Source: a virus
Taxonomy: Duplodnaviria; Heunggongvirae; Uroviricota; Caudoviricetes
DNA length: 64,000 nucleotides
Reading direction: 5' to 3' (one strand)
IMG/VR virus record: IMGVR_UViG_3300031413_000570
Shown: in pieces, positions 19,716 to 62,816 of the stretch
How the letters are laid out: the number at the start of each line of letters is the position of its first letter
Position numbering within the stretch: the first letter of the stretch is position 1
Position numbers and translations under genes: made by a program
Notes under the pieces: model-generated
What the model saw: only the letters and a program-made list of their open reading frames with translations
The model's database searches: none
Told to the model about the DNA's origin: nothing

Positions 19716-20423
19716 CTATTGGGTTTGGAACACAGCTGTAGCAGTAAGGCTACCTGCTGGTACTTCAGTGAAGCCAGCATCATGGACTACTGCGTCCACT
19801 TCCTCTTCTTGAGGCATTTTGGAAACCTTCTTTACTGTAACAGCTAAACCGGACTCAACCCAGGCTTGCACTTTAGCGTCATTGGCATACATGAAGAAAA
19901 GCTGAACAGCATGACCTACCTGAGCAACCAGCTTACCTGTTGACATGTTCAAAGATTCAGGTACGCTGACTGCAAGATAAGCGTCAGGAAGCTCTGTACG
20001 CTCTGTCAGGTCCTCAGACTGTAGACCGGTCACCTGGAGCTTCCTCAGCTCTGCTGGCTGCTCTGAGAGGCGTACAGGGGCGAAGACGCGGACTTTAGAG
20101 CCGTTGTACTCAGCTTCAACAAAAGGAATAGCTGTGTTGGCGGTTTTATCCCAAGCTGAGTTACGAGCTCGTTTAACAATCTTCCGAATCCGACCAGACA
20201 TCCAGGTTGCAACAGCAACACGAGTCAGTTCATCTTCATCTAATAAGATTTTTGTCAACGCTAAAGAAGATGCCTGTAGGACATCCCTTTCTGCTGGAAG
20301 CTCACCGAGTTCATTCTTAGTGTCATTTACGACAAAAATCATCGCATACGGGTCATCATCATCCTGGGTTGTCCAAGATGGAATTTCCTGGTTACGCAAA
20401 TGTGCATAATCTACTTCAACCAT
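19716..20423 (-). CDS. Peptidyl-tRNA hydrolase, PTH2 family (actinobacterial extended type)
   Basis: MSTGKLVAQVGHA and VHDAGFTEVPAGSLT signatures. Confidence 0.8.
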   Translation of the reverse strand: MVEVDYAHLRNQEIPSWTTQDDDDPYAMIFVVNDTKNELGELPAERDVLQASSLALTKILLDEDELTRVAVATWMSGRIRKIVKRARNSAWDKTANTAIPFVEAEYNGSKVRVFAPVRLSEQPAELRKLQVTGLQSEDLTERTELPDAYLAVSVPESLNMSTGKLVAQVGHAVQLFFMYANDAKVQAWVESGLAVTVKKVSKMPQEEEVDAVVHDAGFTEVPAGSLTATAVFQTQ

Positions 20424-46076: not shown

Positions 46077-46877
46077 CTACTTCTGGAAGCCTTCGGGCCA
46101 CTGGCCTTGAGGTAGTCTGACGAGCTGAGGAGTTTGAGGTGAACCTAAATAGGTTTTACCCTGACTGGTGAATTTACTCATCTCTTGTTCGTTCAACTGC
46201 CAAGGCTGTTGAGTCAGTTCGTCCTTCCATCCAATTGGAATCCAGAACGGGTTCTGTCGAAAACCATTCTTCTGGTAGAAACGAGTGAGCCTTTCCCTAT
46301 GAGCCAAAGCTTTAGCTTCATACTGCGGGTGGCGGGTATCTATCTTCTTATCCCCGGCAGAAGTCGGGGTGAGAAAAAGCATGCTGTTGTTAGCGTCTGC
46401 ATGCTTGGTAAGAATGTCCATAATCCATCCACCAACACCTTGACCTCGTAAGCCAGGTGATACATAGAACTCTTTTACTGTGTGGCCAGCAACAGGGCTA
46501 TTATGTAGAGTCGCACCCAGTAGCAGAACAACATTAGGGTCTTGTGTGAAAAACTTCTGGATGTCTGAGTAGGATGAGAAAGATGGGACTGTTTTCAGGT
46601 CGTACTGATGAGATATTTTTTCAGGAGCTATCCCTACAGTTAGTTGTTCATTGGTAGTGTCATCTGACAAGACCAGTTGATCCCATTCTTCTGCGTTCGA
46701 CGCAGGGTAAACACCAATTGGTTTGAAACGATCCATCTCTTCTTTTACCGCGAACATCGTCTGATAGTCTTCGTCTAACAGCGCCTTATCGAAAACTTCT
46801 TTTAGATGGTTCCTCTCAGGACAACGCGGGTCGCGGCATTGCCCTGGAGTGCGAGCTTGGCAGCGGACGTTCTTCAT
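46077..46877 (-). CDS. GNAT acetyltransferase with Cys-rich leader, paralog of 33827..34666
   Basis: RCQARTPGQCRDPRCPE leader; VSPGLRGQGVG; FYQKNGF. Confidence 0.75.
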   Translation of the reverse strand: MKNVRCQARTPGQCRDPRCPERNHLKEVFDKALLDEDYQTMFAVKEEMDRFKPIGVYPASNAEEWDQLVLSDDTTNEQLTVGIAPEKISHQYDLKTVPSFSSYSDIQKFFTQDPNVVLLLGATLHNSPVAGHTVKEFYVSPGLRGQGVGGWIMDILTKHADANNSMLFLTPTSAGDKKIDTRHPQYEAKALAHRERLTRFYQKNGFRQNPFWIPIGWKDELTQQPWQLNEQEMSKFTSQGKTYLGSPQTPQLVRLPQGQWPEGFQK

Positions 46878-47448: not shown

Positions 47449-48126
47449 TCAGTTAACTACTTCATGTCGGATGCAGTGATCCATTGTTTCTTTCAGAAGA
47501 ACAGCTGTAGAGCTTGTTGCTGTCTTTGCATTGTCCAGGACAAGACTTGCTTCATTGAGTATCTTTTCTAACGTAGACACATACAAGCCTGAATAGGAGC
47601 TGCCTGTTTTTTGAGCTTGACGCACTACATAGAAACCGTAAACTTTCATGAAGGGATATCTTTCACGATATGCAGCTACCTTCTTGACAAGGTTGTTATG
47701 ACCACCCAAAGCGATTCTTTTCTTACCTCTGCGACCATACATTTTTCCATCAATATCAATTGAGACGGAATCAAAATTGGATAAAGATTTAGCTTCGATA
47801 ATAACGAGCGTGTTCTGGTAGATCAGAATGTTGTCTGTCTCCCCGTCTTCATCTCCATAGTTTCCGATTGAATGGAAAACGTATAAGTCTTTGTAGTCAA
47901 AGATCAGCAGGTTGAGTAGATTAGCGACAGCATGCTCTGTTATCAAGCCTTTCATCTTCCCGTCATCATCAGCAGTGATTTTGGCTCGGGGATGAGGAAA
48001 TGGGTATGGTGTTCCATACAGTCTACGATCAGAAGCCAGCATTTCTCTGACTTCTTTGGGGGTGTACAGTTTTAACCTGTCGTCTAACATTGGTGTCCTT
48101 TTTGCTTGTGAGAAGCTATCGGACAC
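47449..48126 (-). CDS. NERD domain protein
   Basis: GLITEHAV...VFHSI...ETDNILIY...IIEAKSL. Confidence 0.7.
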   Translation of the reverse strand: MSDSFSQAKRTPMLDDRLKLYTPKEVREMLASDRRLYGTPYPFPHPRAKITADDDGKMKGLITEHAVANLLNLLIFDYKDLYVFHSIGNYGDEDGETDNILIYQNTLVIIEAKSLSNFDSVSIDIDGKMYGRRGKKRIALGGHNNLVKKVAAYRERYPFMKVYGFYVVRQAQKTGSSYSGLYVSTLEKILNEASLVLDNAKTATSSTAVLLKETMDHCIRHEVVN

Positions 48127-48515: not shown

Positions 48516-49955
48516 TTATGCCAAGTTATTCTTAATCCAGGCCAAACCAGATTCACGGGTGCGGAAGCCATCCGCATATTGAGCTGCTCGGGCTTCGTCC
48601 AAAGAAATTCTCATCCAAGGACCTGGACGACGGTCAGGGAACAACGCCATCAAGTCTTCACCTTTGACCAAATCAGGTTCAGGTCCATCAAGAAGACCTA
48701 AAGTGTGGGCTGTGTTCTGAATACGTTCTGCTTTTTCAGTCTCACCACGAGATTTAGCCAGGTAAACCCAATCCTGAATGGTGTTGTGACGGGTCAAAGA
48801 CTTAGCCCAGTGTCTCATCGTCGCTTTCTCTTCGTCCTCAGGAAGCTTCAGACGAGAAAGGTTGTAAGCACCGTTCTTAGCATCATCCCCGATAGTTGTG
48901 TAGCTGAGGAAACTCTTAGCATCATTATCATTCAAATGTGAAGCAATGTTTGCTGACAAAACGTAAGCATACTTACTCTTAGGAATTGTTCCATCGTCAG
49001 CTAACGCCTGAGTCCTTTGCAAATTCTGACCCAATTTTCCATCATTGGCTTCAGCTAATCCACTGAAGTTAGCATCCCAGCCAGTAGACTTCAGCAGTTG
49101 GAAAGCTTTGTGAGGAGCTTTACCTTTTGAGTAGAGTTTCTCAAACTCAGTTTGAACACGCTCTTTAGCTAAATCCTGGAACTGTGGCTGTAAAGTCTGG
49201 GCTTTCACAACAGTGTCAGGGTGAAGCTCCATGTCGAAACGAGAAGCCATCTGAACTCCACGAAGAACACGCAAAGGGTCTTCATCAAAAGCATCAGAGA
49301 TGTGACGCAGTTGCTTTTTGTCTAAGTCTTCAAGACCTTCATGCTTGTCGATGATGTACCCAAGCTGATTATCATACATCAAAGCGTTGATGGTGAAATC
49401 ACGACGAGCTGTTGCTTCATACATTGAAAGCTCTGGAAGCAGTTCAGTGGTGAAGCCTCGATGACCGTCACCCACTTTAGAATCTTTACGAGGAAGGGAC
49501 ACATCAAAGTCTTCTCCCCCGATTTGGATTTTAAGCACACCGAAAGATTTGCCTACTTCATCAACTTGCCCAATTTTACGCAAAGAGGCAACAACTTCTT
49601 CAGGGGTAGCTTTGTACACTTCGATGTCAACATCTTTGGAGTCAAGTCCCAACAACGCATCACGAACGCTTCCACCTACAACGTAAGGTTCATAACCGTC
49701 TTCACGTAACTGGTTCAAGACACGCTGTGCATTCTCGGTGAGTTCCATGGAATAGGCACGGATTTTACCGCCATCAGCAGTCAGATGAGCTTTCTTCTCT
49801 CGAAGTTTCTCCATCTCATCGGTGATACTGGCAACACGATCAGTATTACCTTGCTTAGCATGGTACTGCTTCTGGGCTTGCAAATTCCTTACGTGAATGC
49901 CGAACGCGTTATCTGAGTTGCAACGGCGTCCACCGTCTTCTAATTTTCTACACAT
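48516..49955 (-). CDS. cca: Class II tRNA nucleotidyltransferase (CCA-adding-like) with Cys-rich leader
   Basis: MCRKLEDGGRRC leader; VGGSVRD, DVDIE, RRDFTINA, EDPLRVLRG, ERVQTEFEK. Confidence 0.85.
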   Translation of the reverse strand: MCRKLEDGGRRCNSDNAFGIHVRNLQAQKQYHAKQGNTDRVASITDEMEKLREKKAHLTADGGKIRAYSMELTENAQRVLNQLREDGYEPYVVGGSVRDALLGLDSKDVDIEVYKATPEEVVASLRKIGQVDEVGKSFGVLKIQIGGEDFDVSLPRKDSKVGDGHRGFTTELLPELSMYEATARRDFTINALMYDNQLGYIIDKHEGLEDLDKKQLRHISDAFDEDPLRVLRGVQMASRFDMELHPDTVVKAQTLQPQFQDLAKERVQTEFEKLYSKGKAPHKAFQLLKSTGWDANFSGLAEANDGKLGQNLQRTQALADDGTIPKSKYAYVLSANIASHLNDNDAKSFLSYTTIGDDAKNGAYNLSRLKLPEDEEKATMRHWAKSLTRHNTIQDWVYLAKSRGETEKAERIQNTAHTLGLLDGPEPDLVKGEDLMALFPDRRPGPWMRISLDEARAAQYADGFRTRESGLAWIKNNLA

Positions 49956-50046
49956 CTGATTATCCTTACTCTATGTCCCTTATACCTATCGGTTAAATGA
50001 GTGTGGCCACCTGGAACATGTCAGATGGCCACACTCATGCTGCTTT

Positions 50047-50388
50047 TTACTCGTTTAGAGCAGTTCCTGTGATGGGAGTAAACAGCTCAGCAGGAAGACC
50101 AGTGAAGTCCCCATCAAGAATGCGGGCATCTTTAGCAATGGCCTGGACTCCGTTGTTGGAAACAACCAAAAAGTCACCAATTGCAACGATGACTCGTGTC
50201 TCATAACCTCCACGCTGGTCACCATCAACAACAACAAACCCCTGCTTCTTCAGCTTACCCCTAATGACATCTTTAGGGTCCACTCCGGCAAAAGCGTGGA
50301 GGTTATTAGCAATCTCCTTCAGGTCCTCCTGCTTTACAGTGCTTACCGTGATAACAGGAAGAACTGGACGGAACTGGAACTTAGGCAT
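50047..50388 (-). CDS. Hypothetical protein
   Basis: 113 aa ORF co-oriented with neighbours. Confidence 0.6.
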   Translation of the reverse strand: MPKFQFRPVLPVITVSTVKQEDLKEIANNLHAFAGVDPKDVIRGKLKKQGFVVVDGDQRGGYETRVIVAIGDFLVVSNNGVQAIAKDARILDGDFTGLPAELFTPITGTALNE

Positions 50389-50465
50389 AATGTTTTTCTT
50401 TCGTCAAATGGATAGAAACCAAACTTGAATACAGCTCACACTATACTCTTGTATCAATGTTTGTG

Positions 50466-51113
50466 TCAAGCTAATTTGTTAAACATTTGTTCATCATCAA
50501 TGAACCGGTTCTTCAGTTTATCCAGCCATGCCAGGTTCTTGATTTTGAAAGAAGTTAAACGATTACGGTTATCGTAGCCACCTTTACAAACTACTCCTTC
50601 GAAAGTCATACCTTCCAGCGAACCTGTTTTCACTGCAGAAATGAACTCTTGGGAAGGTTTACCTTCAAACAACAGTTCAGGAGTATCGACATGCTTGAAT
50701 ATTTTGTTGAAATCTTTTGGAGGTAACATGCCTTGCTTATACACATGAACATCAAAAAGTGTTACATCATGAGGTTCGTCTTCGTGATATCCAGCGAAGC
50801 TGTGTTCTCCGTAGAATTCAAAGAAAGCTGTTGCTTTCTGATACTTCTGTTTACGGAAAATTTCATCCAGAACTTCGGTATATTTTTCTTGAATCAAAGG
50901 GATTGCTTCTCCCAGTAACGGGTTAGACGTGTCAATTAGTTGACGACGCGAACCGAACTTTGAGAACCCTGTCTTACGATTCCATTCAGCACGTATGTTA
51001 GAGCCATCTAACTTGTCGTATGCATAAATGTGGGTATTGCGAATAATCTTATCAATAGATGGGTATTGTTCCACCAGGTTACTTACTTTCTTAAATAGAA
51101 TGGTTGCCTGCAC
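50466..51113 (-). CDS. ATP-dependent RNA ligase-like nucleotidyltransferase
   Basis: Motif I DKLDGSN, III FEFYG, IIIa LFDVH, IV EGVVCK, V FKIKN; no OB domain. Confidence 0.75.
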   Translation of the reverse strand: MQATILFKKVSNLVEQYPSIDKIIRNTHIYAYDKLDGSNIRAEWNRKTGFSKFGSRRQLIDTSNPLLGEAIPLIQEKYTEVLDEIFRKQKYQKATAFFEFYGEHSFAGYHEDEPHDVTLFDVHVYKQGMLPPKDFNKIFKHVDTPELLFEGKPSQEFISAVKTGSLEGMTFEGVVCKGGYDNRNRLTSFKIKNLAWLDKLKNRFIDDEQMFNKLA

Positions 51114-51218
51114 TCAGGTGGAGTTAACTCGACACCTGATGAGGTTTATGTCATTAGAAGTAAGATTAGTAGTTCAGCATGGTTTTATTATAGCATGCTT
51201 TACTGCTGGATGCCAACT

Positions 51219-51620
51219 TTATTTGAAAACGCCGAAACAGGTAGTTTCCCCAACAGCTACCTGACGTGTCTGCAAGGTAGCTGAGCTGTTAGCAAACATT
51301 TTACCGGTGGTGGATTTTGAAGCTGACGCGTAAGTTAGTCCGTCAGCAGAGATGGTGCTACAGGTTTTATCGTTCACGGCTAACAATTTCTTATCAACCA
51401 GTTGAGCTTGAGTGCCATAGACATCATAAGCTTGCTTGTATGAGTTTTGTGCCGTGGACAGAGAAGTCAAAGCTTGTCTTGCTGAGTTGTTCTGAGCCCA
51501 AGGAATGATACCTAACACAGTCACAGATGTAATCCCAGCAAGAACACCTACTACAATAATTCCCACGATGATGGAAGGAAGGTCAACTGCACCTTTTGAA
51601 GATTTGAAAAGGTTCATCAT
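51219..51620 (-). CDS. Type IV pilin-like protein (class III signal peptide-like N-terminus)
   Basis: KSSKG-AVDLPSIIVGIIVVGVLAGI..IIPWAQ. Confidence 0.55.
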   Translation of the reverse strand: MMNLFKSSKGAVDLPSIIVGIIVVGVLAGITSVTVLGIIPWAQNNSARQALTSLSTAQNSYKQAYDVYGTQAQLVDKKLLAVNDKTCSTISADGLTYASASKSTTGKMFANSSATLQTRQVAVGETTCFGVFK

Positions 51621-51688
51621 ATGGTTCCTGATAAAAAGGTCATGTGTCTTACACATTATCGGGCGTTAGAAGGAAATAGGGTGTTTCC

Positions 51689-51916
51689 CTAATCGTGCTC
51701 AGCTACACCGTGTTCTTCGTCAATTTCACGATGGACATCTCGTTTGACACGAGGGATGATTATCTTCTTGATAATGAACCCCCATATGACTGAGACAATC
51801 AAAATGTCAAAAACAACTGAGAATGCAAGTTCAAATAGAAGGTGAGCTGGGTCTGTTGCTATTTCAACGAACTCTTCAAGGACACTTCCTCCAGCTGAAT
51901 GAAGGAAGAACATCAA
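51689..51916 (-). CDS. Small membrane protein
   Basis: One long hydrophobic helix; start overlaps the upstream stop. Confidence 0.55.
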   Translation of the reverse strand: MMFFLHSAGGSVLEEFVEIATDPAHLLFELAFSVVFDILIVSVIWGFIIKKIIIPRVKRDVHREIDEEHGVAEHD

Positions 51917-52818
51917 GCTGCTTTCTCAGGAGAGTAACGGCGTTGAATATCGAGAAGCTTTGCTTTACCGTCAGTTAACTGGTTCAGAATGTTTTTGTAA
52001 CCAATCTCTGAAATTGGCAAGTCATTGTTGACGTAACCTTGTTTCACTCTGTGTGTAAGCTCATCAATGACTCCAAGATACTTGGTTGATTTTTTGTACA
52101 ATGACACTGCGGACATTCCTGCTTCAGTGTGGTGAAGTGACAAAGCATTGTCAGTGAAGTCACTGATTTTACCAACAGCTACACGAGGATTTTTGATAGC
52201 TTCGATTACATGGTCACGGTACACTGCATTTTTCTGAGCTGCCGGCATGTAACGGTCTTCGCTGATAGGGTTTGACATACCTTCAACCATTCGGGCTGCA
52301 TTTTTACCAAAGTTCTTTTCGATGTAACGGTAAGAAATCTCACGAGCGTGTTCTTCGTCACGTGGTTCTTCTTTGGCGTATTCACGAGCAATCTCAAAAG
52401 GGTGGTCTTCCACAGTGTCGTGAAGTAATGAGCCAATCAGAGTTGCTTCATCATCGCACCCGTATCGAATGATTCTTAGAGTGTTACGCAGAGGGTGTTC
52501 GATGTAAGGAGTGCGCTCATGGTAGGCACGGTTAGCTCTTGTGTCTGTCTTATGTAAATCAGCTGCGAGAAGTAAAGCCTTCTTTACTCTGGCTGCGTTG
52601 ATGCTGGGAGTCTTGTTAGCGTAAGCCATGACAACTGAAGCGATCTGGGTGCTGTCATAAGTCTTCAAAGCAGTAGTGAAAATCGCTTTATTTGAATGCT
52701 GGAGAGGGTACTTCACGTATTCACGAATTTCACGGTGAGCATCAAAACCCAAACCTGTACCATGTTTCCAGCAGGTTTTTGGGTTCTTAGCTCGGCATCT
52801 GTCTGTTGTAGTAGTCAT
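51913..52818 (-). CDS. RelA/SpoT-type HD hydrolase (small alarmone hydrolase/Mesh1-like) with Cys-rich leader
   Basis: RCRAKNPKTCWKHG leader; TPYIEHP, LLHDTVED, GKISDFTDN. Confidence 0.7.
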   Translation of the reverse strand: MTTTTDRCRAKNPKTCWKHGTGLGFDAHREIREYVKYPLQHSNKAIFTTALKTYDSTQIASVVMAYANKTPSINAARVKKALLLAADLHKTDTRANRAYHERTPYIEHPLRNTLRIIRYGCDDEATLIGSLLHDTVEDHPFEIAREYAKEEPRDEEHAREISYRYIEKNFGKNAARMVEGMSNPISEDRYMPAAQKNAVYRDHVIEAIKNPRVAVGKISDFTDNALSLHHTEAGMSAVSLYKKSTKYLGVIDELTHRVKQGYVNNDLPISEIGYKNILNQLTDGKAKLLDIQRRYSPEKAA

Positions 52819-52850
52819 AATCTATCTCTAACGATAGCATGACATGTTTA

Positions 52851-53528
52851 TCAACCGTTTAATGAATAGAAAGCAACTGAGTCAGTCCAAATTGGTGAAA
52901 TCTTTGTGACATCCCCCGGTTTTGAAGCATGAATGAGTTTGTTGTTGCCTAAGTAAATTCCAATGTGGTACTCAGAAGCTCCACTGTAGAACACTACGAA
53001 GTCCCCTGGCTGAGCTTCAGCTCGTGACACAGGATGAGTGTAGGCAGAGTGTGCTTCACTGCTGACACCATGAGGGAAGTCAATGCCGGTTACCTGATTT
53101 GTAACCCATTTGACATACCCTGAGCAGTCCCAACCTGAAGGAGTTGCTCCGCCGAACACGTACGGCACACCTTCATACTGTAAAGCAAGCTGGACAATCT
53201 GTTCTTTGGTGCTACCGTTGAGAGCAGTAGGAACAACTGGAATGGATGTAGTGGGTGTTGTAGTTGTGACAGCTGTGGCTGAAGTGAAAGGAGCTGATTC
53301 AGGGGCAGGAGGGTCAGTTACAGTGTAACTGTCTCGGGAGATATCTGCAGCTACTGAATCTGATGATGCAGTGAAAGTTTGGGTGTTTTCAGAATCTGTT
53401 GCGTAGATGCTTGAAAGGTCTAACGCTTGGGTGGTTGATTCTGGTTCTGGGAGTACAGAGATGGGGGTTGTTGCTGTTGTGATGATTGTAGAAATGGCAA
53501 TAAGAGGGGATAAAACGGTAACGCTCAT
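52851..53528 (-). CDS. NlpC/P60 peptidoglycan endopeptidase, secreted
   Basis: GVPYVFGG..PSGWDCSG, PGDFV, HIGIYLG..LIHAS; hydrophobic N-terminus. Confidence 0.9.
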   Translation of the reverse strand: MSVTVLSPLIAISTIITTATTPISVLPEPESTTQALDLSSIYATDSENTQTFTASSDSVAADISRDSYTVTDPPAPESAPFTSATAVTTTTPTTSIPVVPTALNGSTKEQIVQLALQYEGVPYVFGGATPSGWDCSGYVKWVTNQVTGIDFPHGVSSEAHSAYTHPVSRAEAQPGDFVVFYSGASEYHIGIYLGNNKLIHASKPGDVTKISPIWTDSVAFYSLNG

Positions 53529-53825
53529 GAAAGAAAAAAGTCCTTGAGTAAACACAAAATAATGTAACGGAAAGATAACGACCTTATACTCTATCGTCTC
53601 CAAATGCGAATTCGTACATGTTTGACATTTTTAATGTCGCTTTAGGAGTAGGTCGCGCCGATTGGAGGCTTTGAGCCCAGAGTTTGGTCGTTATCAAAGA
53701 TCAATTCGCCAGGTTGATTTAGACGAACCTGACAAGCTTATCACACCAGAAACAAGTAGTTACAGCTCATGTAACTCTCACAGCATCCTCTAAGTTCATT
53801 TGATTCGTCACCAGTAGTTCCTGGC

Positions 53826-54029
53826 TTAGAATGTGGTACTTTCTCTATAAGCCATCCGTCTGCCCTGAGGTGAACTCTTCAATGCCGCTGAGTGGAAAGC
53901 AAGAACAGCTTTAGCTAAACGAATTTTCTGATTCTCAAAACTGTCATCCCAGCTTTCTGATTGCTTAGCTAAATACTTAGCTTCGTCAAGATCGATGACA
54001 AGTTCGTTAGTTTTCCCTAAATACTTCAT
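53826..54029 (-). CDS. Small hypothetical protein (likely leaderless)
   Basis: tggTACAAT 6 nt before ATG. Confidence 0.55.
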   Translation of the reverse strand: MKYLGKTNELVIDLDEAKYLAKQSESWDDSFENQKIRLAKAVLAFHSAALKSSPQGRRMAYRESTTF

Positions 54030-54127
54030 GCTCTTATTGTACCATTCTGACGAAGAAAAGACTCTGTAGCCTTTTTCTTTCTCAGAAAAGAGTTGAGGAC
54101 CGATATGTAATACTGTTAAGAAGCATG

Positions 54128-54149
54128 GCCGCCTACGGGCGGCTTTTTT
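54128..54149 (+). terminator. Short GC hairpin plus T-run
   Basis: gccgcc-tacg-ggcggc-tttttt. Confidence 0.7.
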
Positions 54150-54204
54150 AGTTTAACCACATGTCCGATCCGTACACATCAAACAAAGTGAAACACCTCA
54201 ACCA

Positions 54205-54879
54205 ATGAACTCTCTTGTCATCATCATCGGGATACTCTCCTCCATCTGCTTAGTCATGTCCGGACTGTCCACCCAAAGAAAGCGTATGCTTATCTTTGCT
54301 GTTGCGACCAGTGCTCTATGCGTTGTACAGTACAGCCTCACCGGTTCGATTCTTGCTCTCATCATCTGCTTCATCGGAATCTTCCGAAACTTGACAGCTT
54401 TAGCTGCGATTAAGTGGCCCATCTTCCACAGCTGGATGTTTTTGGTGTTCTTCTTACTAATGAACACGGGAGCATTTCTTGTGACCGCTAAATGGGATGC
54501 ATTCAATGCTATTGACACTCTTCCGTTGATTGGTTCGTACCTTGGAACAGTCGCCATTTTCTTCAGCAAGATGACAATTACAAAAAGCTTCATGATTGCC
54601 TGTGGAGCTACGTGGCTGTTCTACGAATACCACGCTGGAATTTACGGTCAGATGGTTGGTGAGACATTCACTCTGGTAGCTAACGTTGTAGCTCTTGCCA
54701 CTCTTATGTCCGCATCTCGTCGCGGTGTTGCTGAACAGGATGTTGACAACGTGGACACTCAGATTATTGAAGTAATTACCAGCAGCATTCCTGTCATCAC
54801 AGAAAAAGTCCGCACGGCAACCATTCCAGTAATGACAGTTGCAACAGCCTCAATCCCTGTTTACAAGAACGAGAAATAA
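54205..54879 (+). CDS. Polytopic membrane protein (YgjV-like)
   Basis: Repeated transmembrane helices, W..Y...G.Y motif near the C-terminus. Confidence 0.6.
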   Translation: MNSLVIIIGILSSICLVMSGLSTQRKRMLIFAVATSALCVVQYSLTGSILALIICFIGIFRNLTALAAIKWPIFHSWMFLVFFLLMNTGAFLVTAKWDAFNAIDTLPLIGSYLGTVAIFFSKMTITKSFMIACGATWLFYEYHAGIYGQMVGETFTLVANVVALATLMSASRRGVAEQDVDNVDTQIIEVITSSIPVITEKVRTATIPVMTVATASIPVYKNEK

Positions 54880-54880
54880 A

Positions 54881-54913
54881 AAGAAGGGGAACCTTCTGCA
54901 GGTTCCCCTTCTT
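54881..54913. terminator. Bidirectional terminator
   Basis: aagaaggggaacct / aggttccccttctt. Confidence 0.8.
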
Positions 54914-54937
54914 CGCTATGTGCGTTGTGTTATTACT

Positions 54938-54966
54938 ATTCTACCATTAAAGTGCTGGTCAGACAA
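54938..54966 (-). promoter_or_regulatory. Primary-sigma-type promoter with no ORF before the next terminator
   Basis: TTGTCT-N17-TAGAAT with extended TG. Confidence 0.6.
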
Positions 54967-54970
54967 GAGA

Positions 54971-55014
54971 ATAAGCCCCAAAAACCTTGATTTTATAAGG
55001 TTTTTGGGGCTTAT
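54971..55014 (-). terminator. Terminator of the tRNA-like gene
   Basis: ataagccccaaaaacctt / aaggtttttggggcttat. Confidence 0.8.
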
Positions 55015-55023
55015 CTATTTTGA

Positions 55024-55152
55024 TTCCGCTGACGGGATTTGAACCCGTGTCTTCTATTTTTTCGCTGGCGCGCTTTCCCACGAATGACTCATGTAGGTTT
55101 GCAACCCTACTCAAATCAATTAGATGTTCTACCGAACTAATACTACAGCGGC
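55024..55152 (-). tRNA. tRNA-like gene with about 55 nt inserted in the anticodon loop (Ile-GAT or Phe-GAA if spliced; no encoded CCA)
   Basis: Acceptor GCCGCTG/CAGCGGA (G1:A72 mismatch), D-region TAGTATTAGTTCGGTAGAAC, stem TCTA/TAGA, T-arm ACGGG-TTCAAAT-CCCGT; own promoter and terminator. Confidence 0.65.
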
Positions 55153-55171
55153 ATGTTTTGTTGTTATCTCT

Positions 55172-55200
55172 ACTGTAACACACTCTAAATCAGAATGCAA
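55172..55200 (-). promoter_or_regulatory. Primary-sigma-type promoter of the tRNA-like gene
   Basis: TTGCAT-N17-TACAGT with extended TG, about 20 nt upstream of G1. Confidence 0.7.
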
Positions 55201-55208
55201 ATCCTTTT

Positions 55209-55391
55209 TCAAACTGCGGATGAAAGAATTTTCATGATGACAATAGAAGCTACAACAAGAATCACTAAGGCCACCAAAGGAGCAATGACAACGCCTCTGG
55301 CCAGGTACGGTTTGGGTGGACCTAACTCGTCAAGAGAGACAGTCTTGTCATGTTCAAAATAAGAGGATTCATCAGCAGTTTTATTTCCCAT
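55209..55391 (-). CDS. Small membrane protein
   Basis: 60 aa with one hydrophobic helix. Confidence 0.5.
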   Translation of the reverse strand: MGNKTADESSYFEHDKTVSLDELGPPKPYLARGVVIAPLVALVILVVASIVIMKILSSAV

Positions 55392-55492
55392 GAATAGAGA
55401 TATCGGTCATGAACTGCATCTGGTCGAAAGACTTTGAAAAGGGGTCAAATTGTGGTAAAATAAGGTAACTTAAAGGCTTGGAGAGAACCATC

Positions 55493-55927
55493 ATGGAATT
55501 TGTCATCAAAGACGCCACCCCTAAACCACAGACACCCAACTCATTCGAAGTAGACATCTCAACCATCATCGGAGATGACGAAGCCTACCAATCTTTCGTC
55601 GTTGGTCCTTTCATTAAAGACCAAGATGAGTACGCCTTGCAGAACCTGCTTGAGACTCTGACTGCAATGACGGCAATCGAACCTAACGGCATGGCTGACG
55701 GAGAACATTACGATGAACTTCCAGAGTTCAGAGCCTGGTTCAAAAACTCTAACGAATATGCAAATGAAGACGAAGTGCCTCTGGAACCTTGGAAGAATGT
55801 AAACCCTAAATGGTCGTTCTACTGGGTGACAGACGCCTACTCTTACGAACACAACAGGTATAATTCGTACACTGTTTACTATTATGATGAAAACCTTGTC
55901 CAGCACAGTGTATACGTGCAACTCTAA
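55493..55927 (+). CDS. Hypothetical protein
   Basis: ggag RBS before ATG 55493; Tyr/Trp-rich C-terminus. Confidence 0.65.
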   Translation: MEFVIKDATPKPQTPNSFEVDISTIIGDDEAYQSFVVGPFIKDQDEYALQNLLETLTAMTAIEPNGMADGEHYDELPEFRAWFKNSNEYANEDEVPLEPWKNVNPKWSFYWVTDAYSYEHNRYNSYTVYYYDENLVQHSVYVQL

Positions 55928-55951
55928 CTTACCTTTAGAAAGAAGTAGAAT

Positions 55952-56269
55952 ATGAGTGATACAACAAAGACTACCAAAGCCGTAAAAGCAACAAAAGAGA
56001 AAGCGCCCAAACCTCCGAAAGTCACCAAAGCGGAGAAGATGATGGAAGAGCGTGCTGTTCATAACTTCGAGAACACGTGTGCTGCAGTGAAAAGTGTTTC
56101 ACCCAGCTTTATTCGTGTGGCCATCGAAGCTTTGGAAAAAGCTAATCTCACTGCAAAAAGCAAGAATCGTATTCTTGTAGGCAAAGCTGCAGTTGAAGAG
56201 AAGATGAAAACAACTCCGAAGATTGTTCTGCCTAAAGAATGGTCCAAGCTTGATGAGCTGACCAAATGA
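55952..56269 (+). CDS. Small basic hypothetical protein
   Basis: Lys-rich N-terminus; followed by a terminator. Confidence 0.65.
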   Translation: MSDTTKTTKAVKATKEKAPKPPKVTKAEKMMEERAVHNFENTCAAVKSVSPSFIRVAIEALEKANLTAKSKNRILVGKAAVEEKMKTTPKIVLPKEWSKLDELTK

Positions 56270-56304
56270 AGAAAGCCCCTCATAATTGAGGGGCTTTCTT
56301 CATT
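56265..56304. terminator. Bidirectional terminator
   Basis: aatgaagaaagcccctca / tgaggggctttcttcatt. Confidence 0.85.
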
Positions 56305-56311
56305 ATTAAAG

Positions 56312-57331
56312 TCAGGCTTTAGTTCTGCAGGTTGGACCTAAGCTGCCTTCACCTTTGAATGGTTTGCCGCAGCGAACACAGTTGCCGGTCTGGAAGACAT
56401 TGTTGATGCTGATTGGACCTGTTGCTTCATTCACAAAAGGAACAACAGTCACTGCAACATCATAGTCACGCCAAGCCTGAATGGCTTGTGGGTTGTCGTC
56501 CACGCAACGCACAACATCGTAATGACGGATGATGTTTTTGTACATGTCTTTCTTTACTTCATAGTCTGGACGGAAGTCAGACTCTGGACGCATGTAAATG
56601 TTTTCGTAAGGAACATTGTGTTCGTCTAACCACTTTTGGGTAGTTTCACGGTAAGGTTCGCTGCGAGCAGTAGTAATGAGAACTGCGAAGCCAGCTTCGT
56701 GAGCATCTTTAGCCATCTGTAACACTTCGTCGTTGGCTGGTTCAAATTCGCTCATACGGTGGAATGAATCAAAGTCACGCTGACGACCTTGAAGGAAGTG
56801 ACGGACTCCGCGAACATCATTCAAAGTACCGTCCATATCGAAACACACAGCTGGCTTTTTGGATGAAGGTTTCACGAAAGGCTTCACTGGGTATGAACCA
56901 GGGAAAACAGGGAACTCTCCGTTAGGGCCTAAACGACTGTACATACGCTTCATTACGTCTTCTGGCACTTGGCGTTCACGGTTAGCGTTACGACGCAAAG
57001 CTTCTTTCAAAGGAATTGGAAAGTCTTTGTGTTCTACAGTTGCACCTAAACGCTGTGCTGCTTTGATTGTCTTAGGCAAGAACTTGGTTGAAAGGTTAGT
57101 ATTGTCAGACATGACATCTTTACCTGCACGGAGAGCTCTTTGAGTAAGATCAAATTCCATCTGGCTGACATCTTTTTCTCGACTGTGGTTGGATGCTGAT
57201 CCAGTCAGAGCTTCACGAATGTCGTCACGGTTGATACGGACACGGTTGTCAGGGTTTTCCATAACCCATTGCTGAGCATATGTTGATTTACCTGAAGCAG
57301 GTATTCCTCTAAGGATTGTTAATGTGGGCAT
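56312..57331 (-). CDS. Polynucleotide kinase/3'-phosphatase (T4 PseT-like) with C-terminal Zn finger
   Basis: GIPASGKST P-loop, RINRDDIR, HAD motif FDMDGTL, ITTARSE, VDD; C-terminal CVRC...GPTC. Confidence 0.9.
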   Translation of the reverse strand: MPTLTILRGIPASGKSTYAQQWVMENPDNRVRINRDDIREALTGSASNHSREKDVSQMEFDLTQRALRAGKDVMSDNTNLSTKFLPKTIKAAQRLGATVEHKDFPIPLKEALRRNANRERQVPEDVMKRMYSRLGPNGEFPVFPGSYPVKPFVKPSSKKPAVCFDMDGTLNDVRGVRHFLQGRQRDFDSFHRMSEFEPANDEVLQMAKDAHEAGFAVLITTARSEPYRETTQKWLDEHNVPYENIYMRPESDFRPDYEVKKDMYKNIIRHYDVVRCVDDNPQAIQAWRDYDVAVTVVPFVNEATGPISINNVFQTGNCVRCGKPFKGEGSLGPTCRTKA

Positions 57332-59080: not shown

Positions 59081-59725
59081 CTACTTACCGTCCCAGGTGA
59101 GAATGTTCATAAGAAGCTCACCCTGCTCAGCTGCATCCTGAACAGCAAGATGGGTATGAGGCAGAGTAGATTTCAGCTTCTTAGGCATGAACCTTTTAGT
59201 GAAACGAGAAATGAGAGTGTTTGCCCGTGTTTTGAACTCGGTTTTGATGTCCAGATGGCGAGAAAAACCAAATGGCGAACCGTTCTTCGAAAATCTCACG
59301 GCGTACCAGTAGGTGAACATGAAGTCAAAACCAAGAGGGTAGGCTGCAAAAATTGCGTTGGTAGTGTCATGCTCTACCTTTTTCGCTTCAACCCATGCCG
59401 AAAAACGTGTCATAGCGTCAACTGGGTCTTCGCCATGCTCAATGATGTAAGCTCTTCGAAGCTCGCCTGTTGTGTCCTTCGCTGAGGCTTCAACTCCGAA
59501 GTTCTCAAACACTCCAACTTTCATGGCGTCACGCTGCCATTCATCAGAAATAGGCTTCAATTCAGCGTAGAATCGATTCTCAGGGGCTGTAACGTCAAAC
59601 TTGACAACCTGCCCATCCTGGGTCTGATAACCCGCTACAACAGCTCCCAGAGCTGTCATGGAGTAAGGCCCTGGAATTGGACCGTCTGCTTCAATGTCTA
59701 CTGAGATGTAAATTTCTTTAATCAT
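59081..59725 (-). CDS. DEDDh 3'-5' exonuclease
   Basis: SVDIEADGP (ExoI), GFDF (ExoII), HLAVQDA (ExoIII). Confidence 0.85.
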   Translation of the reverse strand: MIKEIYISVDIEADGPIPGPYSMTALGAVVAGYQTQDGQVVKFDVTAPENRFYAELKPISDEWQRDAMKVGVFENFGVEASAKDTTGELRRAYIIEHGEDPVDAMTRFSAWVEAKKVEHDTTNAIFAAYPLGFDFMFTYWYAVRFSKNGSPFGFSRHLDIKTEFKTRANTLISRFTKRFMPKKLKSTLPHTHLAVQDAAEQGELLMNILTWDGK

Positions 59726-59745
59726 ATTATCTCAGGATAACATTA

Positions 59746-60324
59746 TTACAGCCATCCTGCAACAATAAGTTTCTTTTTCGCTGGTGTTGTGTAGATTCGA
59801 AGGTTACTAAGGAACTGTTTCGTGCTGTGAGCAGTAACTGGTATCCCAAGTTCTTTTGATAAGCCTGACATCATAGATGACGTATCCGGCTCGCACCAAC
59901 CCATCATGTCAGCGTCCCTCATAATTTGCTCAACAGGTCGATACATTTGCCTGCCAGGATTTTCTGTTGCCTGGATAAGCTGCTTCAAATAAGCTGGTGT
60001 CAACTTGCATTCAACAGAGAAGAACACTTCATAAAAATCAATGAACTTCAAAGCTTTGCGGATGTTGTCAGAGTCAGGACCAGCTGTACCAGTATGGTCA
60101 TAGTCATGGAAGATACCAGCAACCAGAAGATGTCGTAAATCGTAAGAGTTGTAACCGAGTTGGACACCGATGTCGTAAGCATTTACTGCAAACACATAAT
60201 TATGTTCATTGTTGTGATACGGCAAAGAAGCCGCAGGGTTCCTGGATGCAAGTTTCAAGATACCAGTAACAGGTAACTCTGCTTCTTGCAAACGGGAACG
60301 CACTGCGGCTTCTAAGCGGCTCAT
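59746..60324 (-). CDS. HD-domain phosphohydrolase
   Basis: PYHNNEH, FHDYDH, MRDAD. Confidence 0.8.
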   Translation of the reverse strand: MSRLEAAVRSRLQEAELPVTGILKLASRNPAASLPYHNNEHNYVFAVNAYDIGVQLGYNSYDLRHLLVAGIFHDYDHTGTAGPDSDNIRKALKFIDFYEVFFSVECKLTPAYLKQLIQATENPGRQMYRPVEQIMRDADMMGWCEPDTSSMMSGLSKELGIPVTAHSTKQFLSNLRIYTTPAKKKLIVAGWL

Positions 60325-62816
60325 GCTTCCAAAGCCTCCGTGGAGCCAATCTTGTCACGGGTAACGCCATTGAAGGTCAACGCTCCGTCAACGAAATCAA
60401 CCACGACAGCTTTGTTTTCAGTGAACATATCGAACAACAGCATCTCACTGACACCATCTTCCACAAGCTGCTGCATGGCACGACGCAAAGGACGAGCGCC
60501 CAACGACTGGTCGTAACCAACAGTCACGACATGCTTTTTGGCAGCTTCAGTCAAATCGACTGTAACACCAGCAGTGGCAAGACGTACATTCAGACGGGCA
60601 ATGAATACGTCAATGATTTCAACAAGCTCTTCAGTGTTCAGGTGAGGGAACACAACAATGTCGTCAAGGCGGTTCAAGAACTCAGGCTTGAATTCCTGCT
60701 TCAGCTCTGTCAGAACTTTGTTCTTCATTGTGTTGTACGTTGCACCTGTGTCACCCAGAACCTGGAATCCGACAGACCCAGAAGCAATCTGACGTGCACC
60801 AAGGTTGGTTGTCATGATGATGATGGTGTTCTTGAAATCAATCACTCGACCCTGACCGTCAGTAAGACGACCTTCTTCAAGGACCTGCAAAAGCGGGTTG
60901 AAGATGTCAGGATGAGCTTTCTCAATCTCATCAAACAGAATTACGCTGTAAGGCTTACGACGAACACGTTCAGTCAACTGGCCGCCTTCTTCATGTCCAA
61001 CATACCCAGGAGGAGCTCCGAACAGACGAGAAACAGTGTGCTTCTCACCGTACTCGGACATGTCCAACGAGATGAGTGCAGAGTCTTCGTGGAACAAGAA
61101 CTCAGCAAGAGCTTTCGCAAGCTCAGTCTTACCCACACCGGTAGGTCCAGCGAAGATGAACGAACCAGCAGGACGGTTAGGGTCTTTCAACCCTGCACGC
61201 TGACGGCGAACAGTCTTAGAGATAGCCTGAATAGCAGCTTTCTGTCCAATCACTCGGGCAGCCAGCTCAGTTTCCATGCTCATGAGACGCTTGCTGTCAT
61301 CAGTCAGCAAGGTAACAGGGATGCCTGTAGCAGCAGTCAGAACAGCAGCAATCTCAACATCGGTGACAAGGGTAGGCTCATCTGAGGTGGTGTTCTTCTG
61401 TACTTCAGCAGAGATAGCTTCTTTCAGCTTGCTCTCCTGAGCTCTTAAGTCAGCTGCAAGAAGGAAGTCTTCAGCTGCAATAGCTGTTTCTTTCTTTGTA
61501 ATCAGACCAACAAGCTCCAGCTCAAGCTCTTTCACTTCAGGAGGAGTGCTAAGGCGATTGATTTTGGCACGGGCTCCAGCTTCATCCATCAAGTCAATGG
61601 CTTTGTCAGGAAGGAAGCGGTCAGGAACGTAGCGGGAAGAAAGAGTGACAGAAGCTTCGATAGCTTTGTCAGTCAAAGTGATGTTGTGGTGCTTCTCATA
61701 TTCGCTACGCAGACCTTTCAGAATCTGGACAGCTTCAAGGATAGTAGGCTCAACAACATCAACCTGCTGGAAACGACGAGCCATGGCTGCATCTTTTTCG
61801 AAGTGCTTACGGTACTCATCGTAAGTTGTCGCACCGATTGTCTGCATCTCACCACGAGCCAGCACAGGCTTCAGAATGTTAGCAGCGTTCAGTGAACCCT
61901 CTCCACCACCAGCAGTGATGAGAGAATGGATTTCGTCAATGAACACAATGACGTTCGAATCCTGAATTTCCTGAACAAGTTTCTTCAGACGCTGCTCAAA
62001 ATCACCACGATATTTTGTTCCAGCAAGGATACCGGCTAAGTCAAGCGACCATACATCACGCTCTTTCACCGAGTCGGGAAGACTGTCAGAGTTCAGCAAA
62101 GCCTGAGCTAATCCTTCAACGATAGCTGTTTTACCGACACCAGGCTCACCAACAAGGATAGGGTTGTTCTTGGTTCGACGGGAGAGCACCTGAAGAGTAC
62201 GCTCAATTTCTTTACTTCGACCAACAACAGGGTCAAGCTTTCCTTCACGGGCAAGCTGTGAAAGGTTTGTGGCGAACTGTTCAAGGGTAGCAGTCTTCTT
62301 ATTCGAACCAGCCAGACTTACTGGAGAACCTGGTGCAGTGGTACCCGCGAACATAGGAGCATCTTCAGGAGCACGCTCTTCACCATCATTGGCTTTGATG
62401 CTTGCCAGCACAACAGTCTCCAGCTGAGCAATGTCCACTGCAAGCATTGTCAGGCAGCGGTAAGCGTGTGACTCAGTGTTTCGAAGTACAGAGAGAATGA
62501 GAAAATCAGTTGTTACTTTCTTCTTACCCCCGATGTTGAGAGCGAAGAAGAAAGACTTCTCGATGATGTTCTTAGTGTCCTGATCGAAACCAGGAGCAGT
62601 ATTACTGTTCCCAGTTGGAGCATAGGCGGTGGCGATAACCTGAGCTAATGTCTCAGTGGTAACACCAACGGAGTCAAACTTTGCTTTAGTGCTGGGGTGT
62701 TCGGTAAGAGCAAGAAGAATGTATTCACTTCCAGTCTGACCAGCTCCAGCTTCAGTAGCAAGGGCGATGGCTCGGCGGATAATCTGACTTGTGGTGTCCG
62801 TAAAACGGTCGTTCAT
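60321..62816 (-). CDS. clpC: ClpC-type Hsp100 ATPase
   Basis: Clp-N repeats, GEPGVGKT, FIDEIH, UVR-like M domain, GPTGVGKT, DMSEY, SVGF ClpP-docking loop, GARPLRR. Confidence 0.95.
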   Translation of the reverse strand: MNDRFTDTTSQIIRRAIALATEAGAGQTGSEYILLALTEHPSTKAKFDSVGVTTETLAQVIATAYAPTGNSNTAPGFDQDTKNIIEKSFFFALNIGGKKKVTTDFLILSVLRNTESHAYRCLTMLAVDIAQLETVVLASIKANDGEERAPEDAPMFAGTTAPGSPVSLAGSNKKTATLEQFATNLSQLAREGKLDPVVGRSKEIERTLQVLSRRTKNNPILVGEPGVGKTAIVEGLAQALLNSDSLPDSVKERDVWSLDLAGILAGTKYRGDFEQRLKKLVQEIQDSNVIVFIDEIHSLITAGGGEGSLNAANILKPVLARGEMQTIGATTYDEYRKHFEKDAAMARRFQQVDVVEPTILEAVQILKGLRSEYEKHHNITLTDKAIEASVTLSSRYVPDRFLPDKAIDLMDEAGARAKINRLSTPPEVKELELELVGLITKKETAIAAEDFLLAADLRAQESKLKEAISAEVQKNTTSDEPTLVTDVEIAAVLTAATGIPVTLLTDDSKRLMSMETELAARVIGQKAAIQAISKTVRRQRAGLKDPNRPAGSFIFAGPTGVGKTELAKALAEFLFHEDSALISLDMSEYGEKHTVSRLFGAPPGYVGHEEGGQLTERVRRKPYSVILFDEIEKAHPDIFNPLLQVLEEGRLTDGQGRVIDFKNTIIIMTTNLGARQIASGSVGFQVLGDTGATYNTMKNKVLTELKQEFKPEFLNRLDDIVVFPHLNTEELVEIIDVFIARLNVRLATAGVTVDLTEAAKKHVVTVGYDQSLGARPLRRAMQQLVEDGVSEMLLFDMFTENKAVVVDFVDGALTFNGVTRDKIGSTEALEA

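Follow-up and report, generated by a model that had tools for sequence, protein, structure and literature searches.

Do the genes for four enzymes and a tRNA-shaped RNA that lie close together in a giant phage-like element form one machine for the rescue of damaged tRNA, or are they neighbours with related tasks? The question arises from a 64,000-nucleotide (nt) stretch of viral DNA (IMG/VR record IMGVR_UViG_3300031413_000570), here called the window, which is part of an element of about 780 kb from leaf-associated Actinobacteria. The features under study occupy positions 48516-57331, and the loci of relatives are labelled L001 and so on. A preliminary description had placed five features on one strand within 9 kb, and all four enzyme genes and the RNA gene are indeed found on the minus strand within this interval (about 9 kb):

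48516-49955, minus strand: class-II CCA-adding-type tRNA nucleotidyltransferase, 479 amino acids (aa), assigned by Pfam, PHROG, structure match and motifs
50466-51113, minus strand: minimal Rnl2-type RNA ligase, a lone nucleotidyltransferase domain, assigned by PF09414, motifs and an AlphaFold2 (AF2) model
51913-52818, minus strand: HD_4 protein of the RelA/SpoT-hydrolase (small alarmone hydrolase, SAH) type, 301 aa, assigned by profile and motifs
55022-55152, minus strand: tRNA-shaped RNA, 131 nt, without anticodon loop or encoded CCA, assigned by fold and covariation
56312-57331, minus strand: T4-type polynucleotide 5'-kinase/3'-phosphatase (PNKP), 339 aa, assigned by Pfam, PHROG, the structure 1LTQ and motifs

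Judged by their sequences and genomic settings, these genes are probably functionally related and belong to a tRNA-care class, because pairwise links between them recur in separate settings and one gene fusion is found as well. We consider it fairly probable that the locus is a loose neighbourhood of genes for RNA-end and tRNA care, made up of functionally related but separately transcribed modules rather than of one machine.

Four enzymes with intact catalytic motifs

The identities given to the enzymes in the preliminary description (CCA-type nucleotidyltransferase, RNA ligase, alarmone-hydrolase-like HD protein and PNKP) are borne out by domain matches and intact catalytic motifs. The CCA-type enzyme matches the Pfam families PolyA_pol (1.6e-22) and PolyA_pol_RNAbd as well as PHROG 2244, annotated as 'tRNA nucleotidyltransferase' (5.8e-59), and its top match among solved structures is the CCA-adding enzyme of B. 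stearothermophilus (1MIV, 1.1e-25). The head-domain motifs are present as GGSVRD (residues 94-99), DVD (motif A, 108-110), RRD (motif B, 184-186) and EDPLR (motif D, 225-229), and some homologues carry in addition the tRNA nucleotidyltransferase domain PF13735. The protein begins with a Cys leader of about 70 aa, with MCRKLEDGGRRC at residues 1-12.

In a full-length match, residues 5-292 of PNKP can be aligned with residues 5-291 of T4 Pnk (1LTQ, 2.7e-26); the protein also matches AAA_33 (9.5e-24), HAD_PNKP (9.8e-22) and PHROG 505 (2.4e-65). Its kinase part contains the P-loop GIPASGKS (residues 9-16) and the NRDDIR motif with the catalytic Asp and Arg (34-39), while the HAD phosphatase part contains DMDGT with the nucleophile (165-169) and DDN (278-280). 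The C-terminal Cys tail of the form CxxCGKP...GPxC (residues 318-335, positions 56312-56380) is missing from T4 Pnk; it is found in 110 of the 120 closest homologues, and no Pfam family matched it. The Cys leaders that had been noticed on two enzymes are confirmed for the CCA enzyme and the HD protein. Counting the PNKP tail, there are Cys-rich additions on three of the island enzymes.

The RNA ligase matches PF09414 (1.2e-9) and PHROG 548. Its gene likely starts at the GTG at 51074, yielding a protein of 202 aa, and even from the called start it would measure 215 aa, compared with 334 aa for T4 Rnl2. All of 15 homologues keep motifs I, Ia, III, IV and V, with K34 (in KLDG), R56, E99, EGVVCK (residues 172-177) and K190/K192 unchanged. 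The AF2 model (pLDDT 88) is closest to the nucleotidyltransferase domain of T4 Rnl2 (2HVR/1S68, 3.5e-8, TM about 0.62), followed among solved folds by Naegleria NgrRnl. The protein stops about 20 residues past motif V, so that the C-terminal domain required by T4 Rnl2 for nick sealing is missing; because no such domain follows motif V, the ligase is minimal and Rnl2-like and not a canonical Rnl2. Nor is it an Rnl1: it has no match to the Rnl1 family (PF09511), and tblastn searches of the window with the Rnl1 proteins from L033 and L019 gave no match. The comparison of PNKP and ligase with T4 Pnk/Rnl1 in the preliminary description thus holds for the T4-type PNKP but not for the ligase.

Homologues of the ligase (45-53% identity) are embedded in the tRNA gene arrays of the IMG/VR jumbo phages L001, L013, L014 and L018. 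The jumbo-phage ligases of L001-L018 (at about 10001-10620) often adjoin an AAA ATPase of about 398 aa, and in L006 ligase and ATPase are fused into a protein of 601 aa. L013 and L014 also contain a tRNA with the anticodon CUA, and L013 a tmRNA.

The HD protein scores 25.6 bits against Pfam HD_4, below the curated cut-off of 27.2, and its profile and motifs mark it as a divergent member of this family. Searched with a profile of its own family, the solved structures yield first the small alarmone hydrolase 7QOE (2.7e-12; structure in PMC9293644) and then RelA hydrolase domains and MESH1. The RelA/SpoT hydrolase motif set is complete: RANR (RxNR, residues 94-97), YIEHP (105-109), HDTVED (133-138), SNP (182-184) and KISDFTDN (KxxDxxDN, 217-224) are invariant across 21 homologues. 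The N terminus is extended by 75 aa, which include a Cys leader (CRAKNPKTCWKHG, residues 8-20), and there is an insertion following the HDxxED motif. Within the actinobacterial clade of this protein, gp271 of Microbacterium phage A3Wally is the nearest member from a cultured phage (41% identity). The family profile had no match in five IMG/VR jumbo contigs, a result that is uninformative for want of a positive control, and a search of the viral contig set returned relatives neither of the HD protein nor of PNKP.

A tRNA-shaped RNA linked to PNKP

The tRNA-like gene of the preliminary description proved to be a folded RNA with covarying homologues, but one that has no anticodon loop and is seen by neither ARAGORN (no tRNA gene in the window) nor Rfam (nothing even at E<=10). 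The predicted fold (z = -3.1) comprises an acceptor stem of 6-7 bp, a D-like arm and a T arm with the loop GGUUCAAAUCC. A short anticodon-type stem bears two hairpins, with the loops GUUGCAAA and GGAAAGCGCGC, which replace the anticodon loop. With this predicted architecture the RNA is not a canonical tRNA and is incapable of decoding. When introns were allowed and thresholds lowered, ARAGORN proposed a 'tRNA-Stop(tta), 127-nt intron' spanning the RNA gene, a spurious call of low score.

Homologues were found with a covariance model in L029, L108, L096, L117, L032 and L127, located in 880-kb relatives, a 696-kb element, a 215-kb contig and a 1.3-kb contig. An alignment of six sequences shows compensatory changes at 19 of the 33 predicted pairs. 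The loop GGAAAGCGCGC is invariant in all six, GUUGCAAA only in the window-type and L029-type copies, and CCA is unencoded in every copy. In every lineage with enough flanking sequence (three lineages, two orientations) the RNA gene lies at most 2 kb from PNKP. In the window and in L029 it is downstream of PNKP and co-directional with it, and in L032 it is upstream and divergent. The RNA is absent near PNKP in L031, L033 and L034, and with filters off the model found nothing in L031, L033, L034, L019 or L059-L063. A pattern scan of viral contigs gave merely chance matches and ordinary tRNAs.

Directly upstream of the RNA gene is an open reading frame (ORF) for a 60-aa membrane protein (55209-55391, minus strand), and a homologous small ORF with a common SYFEHD motif occupies the equivalent place in L029. 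The contigs of the searched sequencing runs do not cover the RNA gene, so that its expression is neither shown nor excluded.

Recurrent pairwise links in other lineages

The proposal of a tRNA-centred function is supported by links that recur in L033, L019, L062/L063, the phages Circinus and A3Wally, and phage tRNA arrays. In the 725-kb NCBI element represented by L033, PNKP and an Rnl1-type ligase are divergent neighbours, and 2 kb from PNKP there is a small ligase 57% identical to that of the window. L019, a 34-kb IMG/VR contig, contains a contiguous block of Rnl1-like ligase, PNKP and CCA genes, with a PF09414 ligase 6 kb from the block and two tRNA genes nearby. Streptomyces phage Circinus carries a tRNA gene, an RNA ligase, a PNK and a small RNA ligase, all within 12 kb, and in three of five jumbo contigs a CCA gene lies 4-20 kb from the small ligase.

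The HD protein takes part in such links as well. In Microbacterium phage A3Wally, the SpoT-like gp271 is directly followed by a tRNA nucleotidyltransferase, gp272. L062 (5993-8856) and L063 (8001-11086) encode a fusion protein of 640-646 aa. It begins with the Cys leader known from the CCA enzyme of the window (here MCQSKEQGGRRC), and the leader is joined to a CCA enzyme (40% identity to that of the window) and to a T4-Pnk-type kinase (36% identity to the PNKP of the window, 7e-22); an HD_4 gene (32% identity to the HD protein of the window, 1e-14) comes directly after it. The pair of fusion and HD genes sits beside genes for GmrSD and NucS. A co-directional HAD_PNKP-PTH2-HD cassette is present in Arthrobacter (L138, 3844-6759; L135, 4276-6834), that is, in two of 80 cellular loci. 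One tblastn match next to Arthrobacter HD homologues that looked 'PNKP-like' proved to represent the HAD phosphatase half and not the kinase. HD homologues are further found in a tRNA array beside the cysteinyl-tRNA synthetase gene of the 725-kb NCBI element (L035), near the glutamyl- and histidyl-tRNA synthetase genes of L212, and, in L036, with RNase T-like genes on one side and a SpoU methylase gene on the other.

Two further observations concern these loci. At L035 (752-925), ARAGORN reports two adjacent tRNA genes with four-base 'anticodons' (gaaa and gata), implying enlarged anticodon loops; both belong to the tRNA array that surrounds the HD homologue. Within the window, part of the ORF 19716-20423 (19905-20204, minus strand) weakly resembles (31% over 108 aa, 1.5e-7) the N-terminal, non-PTH2 part of the PTH2-domain protein found next to an HD homologue in Arthrobacter.

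One system or a loose neighbourhood

If only these four enzyme genes existed in an element of about 780 kb, chance would bring them together within 9 kb with p of about 6e-6. The gene class behind this value was chosen after the fact, and recurrence in other lineages is for this reason the stronger argument. The local gene order includes the following further features:

50047-50388, minus strand: 113-aa ORF between the ligase and CCA genes, without Pfam or PHROG match
51689-53603, minus strand: probable transcription unit NlpC/P60 - HD_4 - 75-aa membrane protein, assigned by gene order and overlap
54970-55015, minus strand: bidirectional intrinsic terminator with a 19-bp stem, directly after the RNA gene, assigned by scan and sequence
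55172-55200, minus strand: promoter-like TTGCAT-17-TACAGT upstream of the RNA gene, read by eye and unlisted by the promoter scan
55952-56269, plus strand: 105-aa Lys-rich ORF converging on PNKP, without Pfam match

The HD gene is most likely co-transcribed with its two neighbours. The NlpC/P60 gene (52851-53603; NLPC_P60, 1.3e-22) precedes it, the gene for the 75-aa membrane protein (51689-51916) overlaps it by four bases at start and stop, and L029/L108 and L031 show this order too. The 113-aa ORF, near which the promoter scan placed a promoter-like site (50469-50440), is absent in L031, where the ligase and CCA genes abut. The 105-aa Lys-rich ORF adjoins PNKP in L029, L031, L076, L096 and L108 (tblastn). 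Upstream of the RNA copy in L029 there is a similar TTGCAT...TATGCT. The scan lists 13 promoter-like sites compared with 14.1 in shuffled sequence; since the sites are not enriched, no promoter claim is made beyond the reading of single sites.

Several observations weigh against the interpretation of these genes as a connected tRNA-directed group. They are separated by the NlpC/P60 gene, the gene for the 75-aa membrane protein, a pilin-like gene and the 113-aa ORF, and also by three plus-strand genes, of which one encodes a YgjV-type membrane protein; the RNA gene is bordered by strong terminators. The order ClpC...PNKP...NlpC-HD...ligase-CCA is shared only with collinear close relatives, whose PNKP is 71-74% identical, and this is ordinary collinearity. 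Elsewhere the parts are scattered: in the 725-kb and 696-kb elements a distance of about 300 kb separates the HD gene from PNKP, the 696-kb element has a solitary CCA gene beside gyrase genes, PNKP is solitary in L034, the HD gene of L211 has no RNA-related neighbours, and 57 kb lie between PNKP and the ligase in the jumbo contig G003. The nucleotidyltransferase also has matches among structures of E. coli-type poly(A) polymerase (6.8e-21), and a CCA-adding and a poly(A) polymerase role are inseparable by sequence alone. ARAGORN finds no tRNA gene in the window, and no host attack system was identified.

Separated by terminators and by unrelated genes of either strand, the enzymes and the RNA belong to at least four or five transcription units and not to one operon. 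The claim of one coordinated system is not upheld by this arrangement, and the synteny in related genomes that had been proposed as a check is confined, as regards the four-gene island, to the collinear close relatives.

Possible functions and rival explanations

CCA-adding enzymes rebuild tRNA 3' ends. The CCA enzyme of the window would accordingly restore 3' ends that have been trimmed, and it would likewise complete those tRNA-like transcripts of the element that lack CCA. The HD enzyme would either strip the 3'-pyrophosphate from tRNA CCA ends or degrade the (pp)pApp or (p)ppGpp made by toxic small alarmone synthetases (toxSAS). Both activities have precedents: SAHs hydrolyse (p)ppGpp and (pp)pApp and restore tRNA with a CCA end pyrophosphorylated by toxSAS (bioRxiv 10.1101/2021.04.30.441581), and stand-alone phage SAHs neutralise every toxSAS toxin tested (PMC7229694). 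The recurrent HD-CCA-kinase linkage may tilt the HD enzyme of the window towards the tRNA 3' end, a tilt that falls short of proof. For the locus as a whole, we infer a counter-defence role.

A more specific proposal can be put forward tentatively, and we regard it as possible rather than likely: the actinobacterial SAH-type HD clade, instead of hydrolysing free alarmones, would be dedicated to de-blocking tRNA 3' ends in concert with the CCA enzyme and a Pnk-type kinase, the tRNA-shaped RNA would serve as decoy or cofactor, and all of them would make up a 3'-end repair branch directed against tRNA-pyrophosphorylating toxSAS. This idea is derived from the L062/L063 fusion and its adjacent HD gene, the adjacency in A3Wally and the Arthrobacter HAD_PNKP-PTH2-HD cassette. 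Defences based on tRNA-pyrophosphorylating toxSAS are common in Actinobacteria.

The same genes could instead serve housekeeping, maturing and maintaining the element's own tRNAs and tRNA-like RNAs by CCA addition, end processing and ligation, whether or not the host attacks. Such a role would suit an RNA that lacks an encoded CCA in all lineages, a ligase family embedded in phage tRNA arrays, and HD homologues near aminoacyl-tRNA synthetase genes and tRNA arrays. It is nevertheless unlikely, as PNKP plus ligase is the classic answer to nuclease damage and corresponds to no known bacterial tRNA maturation step, hydrolases of the SAH type are not known to take part in maturing tRNA, and the window is devoid of tRNA genes recognised by ARAGORN. 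Inherited synteny without any shared function would account for an island that is kept among collinear close relatives only while its parts are dispersed in divergent elements, and for an HD gene that shares its likely transcription unit with NlpC/P60 and membrane-protein genes and not with an RNA enzyme. The HD protein would then be a hydrolase of free alarmones that dampens the host stringent response or (pp)pApp toxicity, in agreement with the placement of HD-alarmone phosphodiesterases under counter-nucleotide systems by Iyer et al. 2021 (PMC7824862), PNKP and ligase would mend nicks generally, and the CCA-type enzyme would act alone. The gene that fuses CCA enzyme and Pnk-type kinase, with an HD_4 gene behind it, the HD-CCA pair of phage A3Wally and the Rnl1-PNKP-CCA block of L019 make this explanation quite improbable, given that repeats across separate lineages are hard to account for without a common substrate.

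Lastly, the RNA might be an interrupted tRNA, from which an insert of about 55-64 nt is excised before PNKP and the ligase heal and seal the halves in a yeast-like splicing reaction. The insert is enclosed by an anticodon-type stem (UCUA/UAGA here, CUCA/UGAG in L029 and CUUCA/UGAAG in L032), and PNKP is always nearby. However, introns normally evolve faster than exons, whereas this insert is the most conserved part of the RNA, with the invariant GGAAAGCGCGC and covarying helices of its own. Neither a splicing endonuclease nor a bulge-helix-bulge motif was seen, and the intron mode of ARAGORN yields just its spurious low-score call, all of which renders splicing highly improbable.

The element and its other genes

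JGI contigs of 782-789 kb carry proteins that are near-identical to those of the window, and DNA of the element is met again in phyllosphere, plant and straw metagenomes. The host is probably a member of the Microbacteriaceae or of related Actinobacteria, because the nearest cellular and cultured-phage homologues of the HD protein come from Microbacteriaceae and Microbacterium phages. A megablast search with 48-58 kb of the window against isolated phages gave no match. The G+C content of the window is 42-49%. Other window genes include gyrA/gyrB, dnaG and clpC, a C5 DNA methylase gene and the genes for two giant KTSC/SWIM/amidoligase proteins; rIIA/rIIB-like genes are present in relatives.

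In two leaf-litter metatranscriptome runs, contigs of 151 nt match the CCA gene and plus-strand ORFs with 0-4 differences (48930-49268 and 55526-56017, the latter in ORFs 55478-55927 and 55952-56269), for which carry-over of DNA is a possible source.

Just downstream of the CCA gene are genes for a NERD-like nuclease-domain protein with a borderline score of 21.8 bits (47449-48126, minus strand) and for a GNAT acetyltransferase with another Cys leader (46077-46877, minus strand). Upstream of PNKP, a block encoding ClpC (831 aa), an HD phosphohydrolase (PHROG 16069) and a protein with DEDDh-exonuclease-like motifs (59081-62816, minus strand) is maintained in L029, L031 and L096. The L032 homologue of the HD phosphohydrolase has a weak PDEase_I match and adjoins an adenylate kinase gene.

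Relation to known systems and significance

The closest classical counterpart is the pair of T4 Pnkp (pseT) and Rnl1, which reverses PrrC damage. The window resembles it in the full-length PNKP alignment, the kinase and phosphatase motifs and an ATP-dependent ligase nearby. It differs in that this ligase is an Rnl2-type domain of 202-215 aa and not an Rnl1, that PNKP has an extra C-terminal Cys tail, and that the two genes are 5 kb apart and separately transcribed; moreover, no PrrC-like host nuclease is known here.

Among stand-alone SAHs, those of Salmonella phage SSU5 (PaSpo) and PVP-SE1 (PbcSpo) and the antitoxin ATfaRel likewise consist of a single RelA/SpoT hydrolase domain with catalytic motifs, but the HD protein of the window is distant (25.6 bits to HD_4) and has the 75-aa Cys-leader extension and the insertion after HDxxED. 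The tRNA-shaped RNA can be compared with the YrlA-type Y RNAs and, we presume, with the T4 stable RNAs C and D. The likeness lies in small size, separate transcription, tRNA-like acceptor and T arms, and a place beside RNA-repair genes. As differences, its own 5' and 3' ends form the acceptor stem, and the anticodon loop gives way to two conserved hairpins. Rfam yields no family for it, not even YrlA, and no Ro60 gene was seen near it.

RNA-repair kits of jumbo phages, comprising Rnl1/Rnl2/RtcB, PNK-HAD, a CCA-adding enzyme, tRNAs and TROVE with a tRNA-like partner, have been described by Iyer, Anantharaman, Krishnan, Burroughs and Aravind (2021, PMC7824862). The same component families occur here in a very large phage-like genome, with the same proposed logic; since the concept of a tRNA-repair kit is already published for jumbo phages, the window is a further example and not a new coordinated system. 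Two differences are apparent. HD-alarmone phosphodiesterases are listed apart from RNA repair in that work, whereas here and in relatives they are linked to CCA and Pnk genes, and the RNA of the window has no TROVE/Ro60 partner in the window. Within the literature that was searched, no paper brings alarmone hydrolases together with CCA-adding enzymes. The HD-CCA-Pnk coupling and the PNKP-linked tRNA-shaped RNA are modestly novel.

Read as a loose neighbourhood of tRNA-care genes, the locus adds a well-documented example from a giant actinobacterial element to the known tRNA-repair kits of phages, and it provides comparative evidence, from one gene fusion and several independent adjacencies, for an association of RelA/SpoT-type hydrolases with CCA-adding enzymes and Pnk-type kinases. 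This linkage fits the ability of SAHs to unblock pyrophosphorylated tRNA and suggests an order of repair in which the tRNA would be de-blocked, its CCA end rebuilt, and breaks healed and sealed. Candidate roles for the tRNA-shaped RNA near PNKP are those of a substrate, a decoy or a cofactor.

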